Source: Escherichia coli
GTDB lineage: Bacteria; Pseudomonadota; Gammaproteobacteria; Enterobacterales; Enterobacteriaceae
NCBI RefSeq assembly: GCF_050920415.1
Contig: NZ_CP169309.1
DNA length: 64,000 bases
Direction: 5' to 3' (one strand)
This document shows positions 2,171 to 6,542 of this stretch, piece by piece (within the stretch, counting starts at the first letter, position 1; the number at the start of each line of letters is the position of its first letter). Below the pieces are notes generated by a model. It was not told the origin of the DNA and made no database searches. It worked only from the letters and a program-made list of their open reading frames with translations. Both the position numbers and the translations under genes were made by a program.

Positions 2171-2638
2171 CTAGTTAATACACTGAGTGCGGATATATTC
2201 CTGCGCCCCTTCCAGCTGCTTCTGCATCATCATCAACCGCTCTCTGAGAGTGAAATAATCCCGTTCAACTGTGTCTGCCAGTCGGGGGCCGGTTGCATTA
2301 TCCACGCCGGAGGTGCCGGTGGCTTCACGCACGGTACCGGAGCAGGTGGCGTTGATCCGCAGGCGCTTACGACCAGCGGCAACATCAGCACGCAGAGTTT
2401 CATTTTCAGCTCTCGCATCGGCTAATTCCCTCGAGTATCTGGCATCAAGTGCAGCGACATCACGCTGGCGTATCTGCATATCAGTAATTGTCGCGTTCGC
2501 CAGCTCCAGCTCTCTGACTTTTTTATCGCGCTGCGCTTTGTAGGTGATGGCGTTATCGCGGTAATGATTCAGCCCCAGACCAAGCGCACCACAGGCTACC
2601 AGCAGGACAATAATCACCACACACAGAACACGGTTCAT
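2171..2638 (-). CDS. rz: Rz inner-membrane spanin (i-spanin)
   Basis: 155 aa with N-terminal TM segment and coiled-coil body ([58 protein letters not shown]); directly downstream of endolysin. Confidence 0.85.
2233..2418 (-). CDS. rz1: Rz1 outer-membrane lipoprotein spanin (o-spanin), embedded in the +1 frame of Rz
   Basis: 61 aa [61 protein letters not shown]: lipobox then proline-rich region, like lambda Rz1. Confidence 0.85.
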
Positions 2639-2778
2639 ATCCCCCTCACCCCATCATCCCCGACGAAGACAACATCATCCAGCCTAAGAGCAACCAGCAT
2701 TAGTGAAAATGAAATGCCGACGATTACACAGAGGATCTTCGCCAGCGTTATGAGCTTGTCTGACATGCTTAATCCTCT

Positions 2779-3039
2779 TCACGATTTCAACGCAATGACC
2801 AGTTTTGCCAGCCCATACAGCATCGGAGACACAGCAATACCGACCGCCACCCACTTAATAGCAAAAGCCAGCGCTCTGCTGATGTCATCAGTTACAGGCG
2901 CTTTCAGTTCAAGGCCGTTTTTCATAGTCAACCTCAACAGAATTCGTTTATACTTTTCCATGTTCTCCCTTGCCTTATCCAAGGTCAGAAACACAAAACC
3001 CCGCTTGCTGCCAACAAACGGGGTTTTACTTTTATTCAC
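2779..3039 (-). CDS. Small membrane protein of unknown function between endolysin and Rz (start uncertain)
   Basis: ORF with C-terminal hydrophobic segment (AFAIKWVAVGIAVSPMLYGLAKLVIALKS); position inside lysis cassette. Confidence 0.35.
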   Translation of the reverse strand: MNKSKTPFVGSKRGFVFLTLDKARENMEKYKRILLRLTMKNGLELKAPVTDDISRALAFAIKWVAVGIAVSPMLYGLAKLVIALKS

Positions 3040-3116
3040 TTAGGTTTTGCCAGTTCGCAGGATTTCGTGTTATCCGTCCGCGTTGGTCAACGTCATTTTT
3101 CAGCAAAATATTCTGC

Positions 3117-3650
3117 TTATCTGTCGATTCCCCAGCACGCCAGCGCGCTCTCCTGGTCACGACGGGATATCTGACCGTAACAGTTGTTTGAGCGGATACG
3201 GCAGTCTCTGCCACCGTCCTTAATCCACCAGCGAATCGCTTCACACGCTCCCCTGCGATCGCCTGCATTAATTCGTTTATAAAACGTCGACGGGAAACAC
3301 TTACCGGGGCCAATGTTATACGGGCAGAATGACGCGATCCCCGCTTTCTGGGGTTCAGTCAGTGGCACTTTGATGTTTTTCGCCACCCATGCCAGCGCCT
3401 TATCACGTTCAATGGCGTTAACCCGGTCGCATTTTTCCTTTGACAGCTTCATGCCAGGAATAACAGGCTTACCATCCACCCGGGTGGCTCCACGGCAGAT
3501 GGTCCAGATCCCCGCACCATCACGGTATGCCGTGGTGTGGTTACCTTCCTTTTCATCCAGAAACTGGTCGAGGATTTCAGGCGCAGGCGCACCTGCGGCA
3601 ATCAGCGCCAGAACGGCAGCCGACAGACCGTATTTGATTTTGGTGTTCAT
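3117..3650 (-). CDS. SAR endolysin (phage lysozyme R, GH24)
   Basis: 177 aa; N-terminal signal-anchor-release segment (LSAAVLALIAAGA) then lysozyme motif EGNHTTAYRDGAGIWTICRG. Confidence 0.9.
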   Translation of the reverse strand: MNTKIKYGLSAAVLALIAAGAPAPEILDQFLDEKEGNHTTAYRDGAGIWTICRGATRVDGKPVIPGMKLSKEKCDRVNAIERDKALAWVAKNIKVPLTEPQKAGIASFCPYNIGPGKCFPSTFYKRINAGDRRGACEAIRWWIKDGGRDCRIRSNNCYGQISRRDQESALACWGIDR

Positions 3651-3778
3651 GGATATTTATCAGGATTTATCGGTTCCGAATCCCTGGATATGTTAAGTCT
3701 TCAGCCTGCCAGTGGTGGGCACTGGTGTTTTACCTGATGGCTGAAATATATCTGACAATTCCCGTCGAGGATTTAGCA

Positions 3779-4093
3779 ATGTATAACGATGAACATAAAT
3801 ATACCGCCTGCATGCAGGCCATGAATGAACAATTTAAATCAGCATTCCTTAAACTCATTCAGCAAAACCACAAAGCAGTAAAATCCATTCAGGCTGAGCC
3901 GTATGGACACCTCACACCACCAACTCTCGACATTATGTCCAGAATATTAACACCAGCCATGCTTCTACGTCTGAAAGACAATATAAATGACTGGTTAAAC
4001 GAAGAATTAAACTACCTTGAATGTGAGTGGGATCATCATTACGCCAAATCACAAAAAGAACGCATCTTCCGTCGATTATCCGGCAACAGATAA
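3779..4093 (+). CDS. Hypothetical protein, opposite strand to lysis genes (insert in lysis cassette)
   Basis: 104-aa ORF from ATG with GAGGA RBS 7 nt upstream; converges on the 4103-4743 gene with a 9-nt gap. Confidence 0.45.
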   Translation: MYNDEHKYTACMQAMNEQFKSAFLKLIQQNHKAVKSIQAEPYGHLTPPTLDIMSRILTPAMLLRLKDNINDWLNEELNYLECEWDHHYAKSQKERIFRRLSGNR

Positions 4094-4102
4094 CGAGCCA
4101 GC

Positions 4103-4743
4103 TTATATACGTCCTTTAAGATAAGTCAGTCCTGGATGAAACCAGTAAGCAGGCACTTTTTTAAAGGGTGGATTATCAAAATCACGAAGAAGAGCCTCCC
4201 GCACAACTGCATCCTTGTCCGCACCACTGGCCAGCGCTTCAATCTCAGCAGCTACCTGCAGATATCCCATGCAACGACCAATGCGCTTCATTAGTCCCTG
4301 CTTTTTATTGTTCTTCAGGTAATCAATGGCAAATTCAATGAGCGCCTCACTGTGCTGGTGCGATGCTGGTGTTACTTTTCCATCTTCACGGATCGTGATA
4401 TTCCAGTCATCGCTTGTCACAATAAAAGATGGCCGATTCCCCCCCCATGCCTGGTCTTTATCCGGTGCAGACGCAATAAAATAACGTTTATTGCCTTCCT
4501 CTCCGGCACTTTTAACTGTAATGGAGTACTTTTCTGACAATGCGGTCGGTAAAAACTTTTCCTGCAAAATCTTCTCAAAGGTCCTGCGAGCAATTTTGAT
4601 GCAATCATCGTAAAACGCTGCTTCCTGCTCATCGCGGCGTTTTTTTCATCTTCAGAAACCATCAGCACCGACAGTTTTTTATTCAGTTCAGTGATTTCAT
4701 TTTCCAGGCAACTTATGCGCTGATTCATTTCTTCATGGTTCAT
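4103..4743 (-). pseudogene. Hypothetical protein gene between holin and endolysin, interrupted by a frameshift (ORFs 4417-4743 and 4103-4567)
   Basis: N-terminal ORF (MNHEEMNQRISCLENEITELNKKLSVLMVSEDEK) and C-terminal ORF (...QEKFLPTALSEKYSITVKSAGEE...) join into one plausible protein if the A/T run at 4640-4646 had one more base (EDEKKRRDEQEAAFYDDCIKIARRTFEKILQEKF). Confidence 0.5.
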
Positions 4744-4746
4744 CGT

Positions 4747-4962
4747 CTACTCTCCCCGCGCCGCCTTACGCCGGTCCTCTCTGATTTTGAAATACAGGTT
4801 AGTCAGGTACGTCAGCAGGCCAAACAGCAGACTCCCCAGCACACCTATCGCCACCCACTGGGACGGAGAGACTTTGTCCAGCAGCTGCAGTAACCAGTAT
4901 CCCGTCCCCACCGCTGACGTGGTGTATGACACACCTGTTGTGATTTTTTCCATCTGGTACAT
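4747..4962 (-). CDS. Holin (lambdoid EssD-like, dual-start motif)
   Basis: 71 aa [71 protein letters not shown]; matches remembered DLP12 EssD; Met-x-x-Met dual start. Confidence 0.85.
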
Positions 4963-5264
4963 ACCCCGTCTCCCGTTATCCGGAAACTGACAACAATAAA
5001 AAAGCCACCCGTTAATTACTGATGGCTCTGATGCATAAACGTCATCATTCCTGACCGTTATGATTGACAATGGTTATCATTTTTATATAAAAATACTCCC
5101 GATATGTGTTACATATCATTTCTCCACGGGGAATATCCCCACGCCAGCGTCAGACTCGTTTTCCCGTTCTCTTCTGTGCTGGCGTTTTTTTTATTATGAT
5201 GTCGGTACATTTATCTCCAGCACCAGGCTTTCAATCTCAACACCATACGCGGAATTTTTGGGCG

Positions 5265-5295
5265 TAAAAAATCCCCTCCGGTGAGGGGATTTGCT
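5265..5295. terminator. Hairpin terminator downstream of TerB-like operon (possibly bidirectional)
   Basis: CCCCTC-ACCG-GAGGGG stem with T/A runs on both sides. Confidence 0.5.
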
Positions 5296-5523
5296 TATGT
5301 AAACATTTACACTGCTTACCTGCATGGTGCCGGGTGCCTCCCGGTGAATTCAGTATCAGCACCTGAATCCGCAATTATCCCATATACCTACTTGCTGATT
5401 GCCCCTCCGCACAGGGGGATTCACCATGCGAAATTTTTTTAACAAATGCTCAGTCTGACAGGCAACTGTCAACTGGCTGAATTGTGAGACATTTAAAATT
5501 TTCGGGGCGTAACTGATACCCGG

Positions 5524-6289: not shown

Positions 6290-6366
6290 TGGCGCGTTGT
6301 ACTGGATTCGAACCAGTGACCGATTGCTTAGAAGGCAATTGCTCTGTCCGACTGAGCTAACAACGC
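6290..6366 (-). tRNA. tRNA-Arg (anticodon UCU), phage-encoded
   Basis: Minus strand GCGTTGTTAGCTCAGTCGGACAGAGCAATTGCCTTCTAAGCAATCGGTCACTGGTTCGAATCCAGTACAACGCGCCA folds as a canonical cloverleaf with anticodon loop CTTCTAA. Confidence 0.85.
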
Positions 6367-6467: not shown

Positions 6468-6542
6468 TGGTGGCCCTGCTGGATTTGAACCAGCGACCTG
6501 GCGATTATGAGTCGCTCACTCTCACCACTGAGCTAAAGGGCC
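6468..6542 (-). tRNA. tRNA with CAU anticodon (resembles E. coli tRNA-Ile2, lysidine type; could be Met type)
   Basis: Minus strand GGCCCTTTAGCTCAGTGGTGAGAGTGAGCGACTCATAATCGCCAGGTCGCTGGTTCAAATCCAGCAGGGCCACCA; anticodon loop CTCATAA; acceptor stem one pair short of canonical. Confidence 0.8.

Follow-up and report, generated by a model that had tools for sequence, protein, structure and literature searches.

A conserved 60-codon gene for a predicted small membrane protein follows a terminator-like hairpin between the endolysin and Rz genes of a phage-21-type lysis cassette in Escherichia coli

The interval between the endolysin gene R and the i-spanin gene Rz of a phage-21-type lysis cassette in Escherichia coli contains a genuine, strongly conserved gene of 60 codons, here called ORF60 (MEKYKRILLRLTMKNGLELKAPVTDDISRALAFAIKWVAVGIAVSPMLYGLAKLVIALKS; positions 2961..2779, minus strand). 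All positions without a locus label refer to the window, i.e., the whole stretch of 64,000 nucleotides that was analyzed. The product is predicted to be a small inner-membrane protein in which a short linker connects a basic, amphipathic N-terminal segment to a single C-terminal membrane helix. A lysis-accessory role of ORF60 is plausible. In its full form, which we put forward tentatively and consider possible rather than probable, this reading describes a dispensable, Q-dependent late accessory protein that would be membrane-active, occur in two isoforms and modulate the membrane step of lysis.

The lysis cassette starts with the gene of a phage-21-type class II holin (4962..4747, minus; PF04971, E=3.3e-32; class II holin according to PGAP as well). 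The upstream neighbor of ORF60 encodes lysozyme R (3650..3117, minus; PF00959, E=2.7e-24), the N-terminal segment of which is weakly hydrophobic, and downstream follows the i-spanin gene Rz (2638..2171, minus; PF03245, E=8e-49) with the embedded Rz1 (2418..2233, minus; PF06085, E=6e-21). R and Rz are spaced by 478 nt, which hold ORF60 and, in addition, a second ORF that the original prediction overlooked: ORF43, small and hydrophobic with 43 codons (2766..2635, minus; phrog_4906, E=1e-14; PGAP WP_420056221.1), the stop of which overlaps the Rz start (ATGA). Its length is 43 codons in 77/77 copies with two alternative C-terminal reading frames, so that the last 16 residues differ in frame among lineages, the window carrying the minority version (10/77). 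The distinct alleles of ORF43 were too few for dN/dS, and it gave no match in Pfam, NCBIfam, PADLOC and PDB sequence searches. Some database proteins (P0098) consist of the ORF43 N-terminus fused to the ORF60 C-terminus. Rz of the window is an intact ORF of 155 codons; in NZ_CP169399.1, which does not differ from the window within the 521-nt query (window 2600-3120), the annotation of Rz (L001 2573-3039) indicates a frameshift near codon 40.

A full-length match to the STnc100 sRNA family (5458..5260, minus; Rfam, 148.7 bits, E=6e-34) was found just upstream of the holin gene; in lambdoid late transcription, this is the region of the short leader and the terminator. Two tRNA genes (6293-6366 and 6471-6542, minus) precede the late region, an arrangement seen in many Stx-type lambdoid prophages. 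The holin–endolysin junction (3725-4567) is interrupted as well: a 154-codon ORF (4567..4103, minus), frameshifted according to RefSeq, aligns with the C-terminal half of phrog_1085, while the ORF on the plus strand (3725..4093) corresponds to phrog_1853. In relatives, a YdfR-family gene occupies this junction instead.

That the gap between R and Rz contains an ORF with a C-terminal transmembrane segment had been proposed before. Its existence, its location on the minus strand and its hydrophobic C-terminal part were confirmed, while its 5' boundary was wrong. The ORF had been read as 86 codons, from a GTG at 3039 to the stop at 2779, on the same strand as R and Rz. However, it is the ATG at 2961, preceded by AAGGGAGAA, that is conserved as the start, and the 26 extra codons of the longer version traverse a 15-bp hairpin (3027..2995). 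In-frame stops are found 4–11 codons upstream of the conserved Tyr4 in Salmonella and in the lineages L098, L104, and L108, and 10 of the 13 lineages checked possess a start codon (ATG, GTG or TTG) 2–3 codons before Tyr4. In the remaining lineages the start codon stands eight codons (L098) or one codon (L102) before Tyr4 or is missing (L014). The true 5' boundary of the gene is 2961, not 3039. In identical DNA, RefSeq/PGAP annotates a hypothetical protein of 60 aa with the same coordinates and an identical sequence (WP_052834940.1).

The length of ORF60 alone is unremarkable, because 80 ORFs of at least 30 aa occur in the first 6 kb of the window; it is the conservation pattern that makes it a real gene. 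The original prediction had tied the reality of the ORF to its conservation among related prophages and their lysis cassettes, and such conservation was indeed found. Of 5426 complete E. coli genomes, 1042 contain full-length ORF60, some of them in as many as seven copies, and the gene also occurs in Salmonella and in the plaque-forming phages PhiR12/PhiR5. Between E. coli and Salmonella it is 78–83% identical, while the adjacent Rz reaches only 41–59% and R is either 36–71% identical or unrelated in the same comparison. Among 94 loci with 27 distinct nucleotide alleles, the 25 full-length alleles entered a codon-position count, which gave 18, 5, and 39 variable sites at the first, second, and third position. 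Comparing E. coli with Salmonella alleles in pairs gives a dN/dS of 0.08–0.18 at dS 0.5–1.0, and of 0.04–0.10 over codons 19–60. With purifying selection acting in both genera, a spurious ORF, which had been considered as one option, is excluded.

Nevertheless, one might ask if ORF60 is a chance or decaying frame, or if the real gene is a 159-codon ORF on the opposite strand (2564..3043, plus). Chance ORFs of the size of ORF60 are common, and the opposite frame is open in 26/26 alleles. However, that frame shares its third codon positions with ORF60 and hence stays open passively. Furthermore, its dN/dS is higher than that of ORF60 in 6/6 comparisons and its second positions are more variable than its first. 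In ORF60, on the other hand, length, motifs and the pattern of hydrophobic residues persist even in other phage types, at identities as low as ~35%. We consider a non-gene as very improbable, since this reading is contradicted already by the substitution pattern, and we rejected the plus-strand ORF as a shadow frame antisense to ORF60 and ORF43.

The predicted protein begins with the basic segment x-KYKRILLRLTMKNGLE, followed by a linker and the amphipathic stretch APVTDDISRALAFAIK. The hydrophobic C-terminal segment (codons 30–58; 2874..2788, minus), in which K36, Y49-G50, and K53 are conserved, is predicted from hydropathy and alignment to form a single membrane helix. Its best 19-residue Kyte-Doolittle window (residues 38–56 of the 60-aa form) scores 1.90, compared to 1.83 for the second transmembrane domain (TMD2) of the holin and 1.74 for the SAR segment of the endolysin. 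Only two residues extend beyond this segment (..ALKS), while the charged part is N-terminal. AlphaFold gave a helix from residue 2 to 14, a loop and a helix from 22 to 59 at low confidence (pLDDT 67), a predicted two-helix model too simple for a fold search.

ORF60 belongs to PHROG 1115/4493. Both profiles are covered in full, phrog_1115 (E=1.2e-46) at positions 1–67 of 67 and phrog_4493 (E=1.5e-29) at 1–56 of 56, and phrog_3246 matches as well (E=7e-19); all three are families without assigned function. Pfam (E up to 0.1), NCBIfam, PADLOC, and PDB sequence searches returned no match. A profile search of 1.84 billion representative proteins yielded only 23 clusters, which makes this a narrow phage family, and no link to a named family. 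Even the distant clusters retain the pattern Y-basic-basic-hydrophobic-hydrophobic-R-x-R-x-S/T-M-K/N-N/D-G-L-E-x-x-A-P; they also share the hydrophobic helix and an ending in ALKS, LK or RWW, and the N-terminal extension is conserved as protein in distant members (YRKTFRLRISM, YRKFFRMRLSM). Homology to the WKF..RWW peptides is not claimed, the profile-profile probability being 27%. Full-text literature searches on an R–Rz gene, on prophage sRNAs near lysis genes and on O157 ribosome profiling gave no description of ORF60; a search on PhiR12 phages gave unrelated papers only, and neither the peptide nor its flanking DNA was found in searches of the supplements of PMC5597208 and PMC10469882. The PHROG and RefSeq entries mention neither a function nor the hairpin nor the alternative start discussed below.

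Upstream of ORF60 lies the hairpin AAAACCCCG-N15-CGGGGTTTT (3027..2995, minus) with a 15-bp stem, followed by GTGTTTCT; on either strand, it is preceded by an A-tract and ends in a T-rich tail. According to its folding it resembles a bidirectional terminator. The pattern is unique in the window, where none is expected by chance, and an equivalent hairpin (5' A-tract, GC-rich stem, 3' T-tract) was found in 16/16 sampled cassettes, 30–75 nt upstream of the start and with folding energies from -18 to -30 kcal/mol. Compensatory changes occur in its outer stem (A:T to G:C in L104, G:C to T:A in L108), the interior varies freely among cassettes, and the T-run on the antisense side occurs in all lineages. 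Hairpins were folded individually, because MAFFT displaced one arm of L108 in alignment A2. Two Salmonella prophages (L008 and L012, ~3915-3955 each) differ by an inversion of the hairpin interior within an unchanged outer stem: 14/15 bases match as reverse complement, but only 6/15 directly.

Between hairpin and start codon, a short 5' leader (2994..2962, minus) carries the Shine-Dalgarno sequence AAGGGAGA at 2971..2964, which is predicted to be partly paired (CCUUG 2984..2980 with CAAGG 2972..2968). The stem sequences of this leader are conserved between E. coli and Salmonella, while the loop is variable. On the other side of the hairpin, the ~90 nt from the R stop onward (3116..3028, minus; including GCGGATAACACGAAATCC) form a non-coding leader that is conserved between E. 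coli and Salmonella loci even if the endolysins are unrelated. Within it, the motif GCGGATAACAC(G/A)AAATCC with a small GGAU/AUCC stem (window 3059-3076, minus) is kept in both genera. Rfam gave no RNA family between R and Rz. Taken together, the comparison of loci shows that bidirectional terminator-like hairpin, ribosome-binding site and small ORF travel together as one unit.

The beginning of the gene is under a constraint of its own. Codons 3–18 (KYKRILLRLTMKNGLE; 2955..2908, minus) are conserved in the protein and at synonymous sites as well: only 3/16 of their third positions are variable among all alleles, in contrast to 34/42 in codons 19–60 (Fisher p=2e-5). Between E. coli and Salmonella they show 0 synonymous differences in ~10 synonymous sites, compared to a pS of ~0.6 in the rest of ORF60, with codons 19–60 near saturation. 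An internal start, an antisense promoter-like site or a recent recombination boundary might each account for this constraint.

The candidate internal start consists of GAGG (2935..2932), six bases before the ATG of Met13 (2925..2923), and the element as a whole (2935..2923, minus) would give an isoform of 48 aa. Met13 is invariant across all family members. The duplex with the anti-Shine-Dalgarno sequence reaches -6.3 kcal/mol in most lineages, a level of -6 or below being found at 7% of background positions. In L098 it even reaches -10.6 kcal/mol, and the GAGG motif is kept although the residues LRL are replaced by VEV. In lineage L014, where position 1 is not a start codon, PGAP annotates the 48-aa form. 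The common O157 allele and L101, on the other hand, have a weakened internal Shine-Dalgarno sequence. These features suggest that two isoforms of 60 and 48 aa may be translated from Met1 and Met13.

The same codons contain, on the plus strand, a sigma-70-like site (TAGTCA-18-TATACT; 2925..2954, inside codons 3–13), detected in a consensus scan. The predicted transcript would cover the ribosome-binding site of ORF60 and end at the hairpin. One might thus speculate that ORF60 is a membrane toxin in a unit of the type I toxin-antitoxin kind, silenced by a cis-antisense RNA until late transcription overwhelms it. This RNA would be ~75–80 nt long, start near 2961, pair with the ribosome-binding site and stop at the hairpin. 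Promoter-like sites at the same relative position occur in three lineages, the other two being L098 (TTTACC-16-TATACT) and L105 (TAGTCA-18-TATAAT), and the neighboring small ORF of L098 has an antisense promoter-like site too. Synonymous change is suppressed across the promoter footprint, Tyr4 is encoded by TAT, as the -10 element requires, in all enterobacterial lineages sampled and in L101, with TAC in L102 only, and the T-run on the antisense side of the hairpin fits as well. In addition, cassettes are arranged in tandem, a feature of many type I systems: arrays of near-identical hairpins, each with a small hydrophobic ORF, were seen in L101 (3430-4410, three units), L102 (240-740), and L098 (3390-3900), and such arrays in phage late regions include ORF60 paralogs and peptides of ~30 aa ending in RWW.

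However, the two hexamers fall on codons conserved in the protein, so their conservation is not independent evidence, and L101 and L102 lack the -10 element and with it the antisense site. Neither a promoter for the toxin, nor an Rfam family at the site, nor a match in the start-site tables searched was found. Most type I toxins carry their hydrophobic helix elsewhere than at the C-terminus, where it is located in ORF60. With one hydrophobic helix and 60 or 48 aa, ORF60 agrees with the size of such toxins (~60 aa or less), and it resembles type I systems, hokW-sokW included, as a small hydrophobic prophage protein in tandem arrays with a possible antisense RNA over its ribosome-binding site. 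In contrast, it has no sequence relation to known toxin families and its antisense RNA is a prediction. We regard the type I reading as improbable.

On the gene strand, no promoter-like site was detected between 1500 and 5600. The sigma-70 consensus scan has a low sensitivity, and this absence is weak evidence because the late promoter, which has to lie in front of STnc100, escaped the scan as well. Together with the terminator-like hairpin just upstream, it nevertheless leads us to infer that ORF60 is expressed late only. According to the mechanism we favor, the hairpin-led unit would have landed at the R–Rz junction, and ORF60 would be produced exclusively by readthrough: Q-modified late transcripts initiated at the promoter upstream of the holin would pass the hairpin, and ORF60 would be co-expressed with S, R, Rz, and Rz1. 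Translation from Met1 and Met13 would then give two forms whose N-terminal tails differ by +3 in net charge (four basic residues, one acidic). The protein would act in the membrane at the end of infection, similar to a holin/antiholin pair or to a Hok-like membrane toxin, and as a dispensable modulator instead of a core lysis factor.

The genomic context of ORF60 bears on this proposal in two ways. A total of 85 E. coli loci share one gene order: S21-type holin, lysozyme and ORF60 are followed by Rz, usually with ORF43 between ORF60 and Rz. In Salmonella, ORF60 stands directly before Rz in four settings: with PF16080 or PF04971 holins, the lysozymes being 36–81% identical to R of the window, with a lambda-S-type holin and a GH19 enzyme, and with an antirepressor gene. 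The place directly upstream of Rz is thus kept in all E. coli and Salmonella loci, with holins of PF04971, PF16080, and PF05106 and endolysins of PF00959 and PF00182. Outside of these, the distant member L105 lies in a myovirus-like locus, flanked by a PG_binding_1 endolysin directly upstream and by two small lipoproteins downstream, and no other membrane protein was seen in the 6 kb fetched. The endolysin-adjacent placement in three unrelated cassette types favors a lysis-related role. A precedent favors it too: hokW (hokW-sokW), a small membrane toxin, is reported to aid release of an O157 prophage (PMC8621323).

The original prediction took R and Rz to be usually adjacent. This is true for K-12 Qin, where both genes overlap and nothing lies in the gap, but not for S21/R21-type cassettes: 1–4 small hydrophobic ORFs precede Rz in most such loci fetched, including that of a Stx2a phage. 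In strain U13A (L003 2541-2960) there are four of them, and in the Stx2a phage EH2201 (L109 839-1057) the same leader and hairpin are followed by a phrog_6632 ORF ending in IRWW just before Rz. In many Stx phages, this site is occupied by another small ORF or by an antirepressor. The R–Rz junction of these cassettes is thus a regular site for hairpin-led genes of small membrane proteins, as judged from gene order. The lysis role, however, is weakened by the absence of ORF60 from otherwise similar cassettes such as K-12 Qin, and the protein itself appears to be dispensable.

It is weakened as well by distant members outside lysis cassettes. Four of them (L098-L100 and L103) follow tail-fiber genes at prophage ends next to host genes, L108 lies between baseplate genes, and L101 is part of an array of tiny hydrophobic ORFs behind the major capsid gene; the family hence need not act in lysis. 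Such positions speak for a moron-like passenger, the protein of which might alter host physiology or exclude a superinfecting phage, late in infection or in lysogeny, while the R–Rz junction merely tolerates insertions. The independent recombination of both flanks, visible in the higher identity of ORF60 compared to Rz and R, fits to this scenario, as do the antirepressor gene and other small ORFs found at the same junction in relatives. In contrast, the consistent placement between endolysin and Rz in Enterobacteriaceae and the L105 copy behind another endolysin argue against a mere passenger, and no PADLOC defense model was matched.

Morons of lambdoid phages, as defined for HK97/HK022, include lom, bor, and HK97 gp15. 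ORF60 resembles them as an extra gene separating two genes that stand side by side in related phages (in K-12 Qin, R and Rz overlap), in its association with a factor-independent terminator, and in its occurrence at several late-operon positions. However, a sigma-70 promoter of its own was not detected in our low-sensitivity scan, and its terminator is located upstream of the ORF instead of downstream, unlike in classical morons. Overall, we consider the passenger reading as possible, yet rather unlikely.

Returning to the accessory role in lysis, the closest parallels are dual-start holins such as S105/S107 of lambda and S68/S71 of phage 21. Like these, ORF60 belongs to the small late membrane proteins of a lysis cassette and has two predicted in-frame starts that would change the positive charge of the N-terminus. 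In contrast, it has one C-terminal helix, where the holins have two or three, its starts are 12 codons apart, and the cassette already contains its own holin. ORF60 does not belong to the holin families compared: it has a helix, but lacks a highly charged cytoplasmic C-terminal tail, and no holin profile (PF04971 or related; Pfam E up to 0.1) matched. This absence of holin features counts against a lysis-related role.

One branch of the family shows a local match to TMD2 of S21 (7/16 residues; E=0.002 for a single comparison), and the identical 11-mer AGTGGGTGGCG occurs in the codons of holin TMD2 (window 4850-4870, minus) and of the ORF60 helix (2840-2860, minus). With a rough chance estimate of ~0.01 for 7/16 residues and 11 identical nucleotides, an origin of the ORF60 helix from a holin might be envisioned and is kept as a lead only. 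One short metagenomic contig encodes a chimera of holin N-terminus and ORF60 C-terminus (P0118), which could be a microhomology deletion or an assembly artifact.

Other lysis proteins were compared as well. ORF60 is not a spanin, as it matches neither PF03245 nor PF06085 nor a spanin PHROG, carries its helix at the C-terminus, and has neither a lipobox nor a periplasmic domain. LysA of P2 has four membrane helices. The Mu gp25 releasin is a DUF2730 protein of 99 aa with N-out/C-in topology and an acidic cytoplasmic domain (PMC9239132). ORF60 has no Pfam match and the opposite architecture, and was rejected as a releasin too. Both proteins are non-essential or regulatory membrane proteins encoded between or beside endolysin and spanin genes, which is what ORF60 has in common with them, while it matches neither.

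A wider generalization would unite PHROG 1115/4493, 6632, and 4906 in one class of promoterless mobile late-operon cassettes, which would encode dual-start membrane-active peptides silenced by a cis-antisense RNA that ends at the bidirectional hairpin of the cassette. In enterobacterial prophages these would serve as interchangeable modifiers of the lysis clock just before the spanin genes. We mention this idea as a speculation and think it quite improbable in this comprehensive form.

About one fifth of the complete E. coli genomes carry ORF60, often in several prophages and including O157:H7 and other Shiga-toxin producers, while databases list it as "hypothetical protein" only. If ORF60 shifts the timing or efficiency of lysis, phage burst and the release of phage-encoded toxin would be affected, and an accessory layer would be added to the pathway of pinholin, SAR-endolysin, and spanin. 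The unit of hairpin and small ORF may furthermore show how lambdoid phages shuffle very small genes. Even without a lysis phenotype, the boundaries of the gene are now fixed, a shadow ORF is removed, and the R–Rz junction of these cassettes is shown to be a regular site for genes of small membrane proteins.
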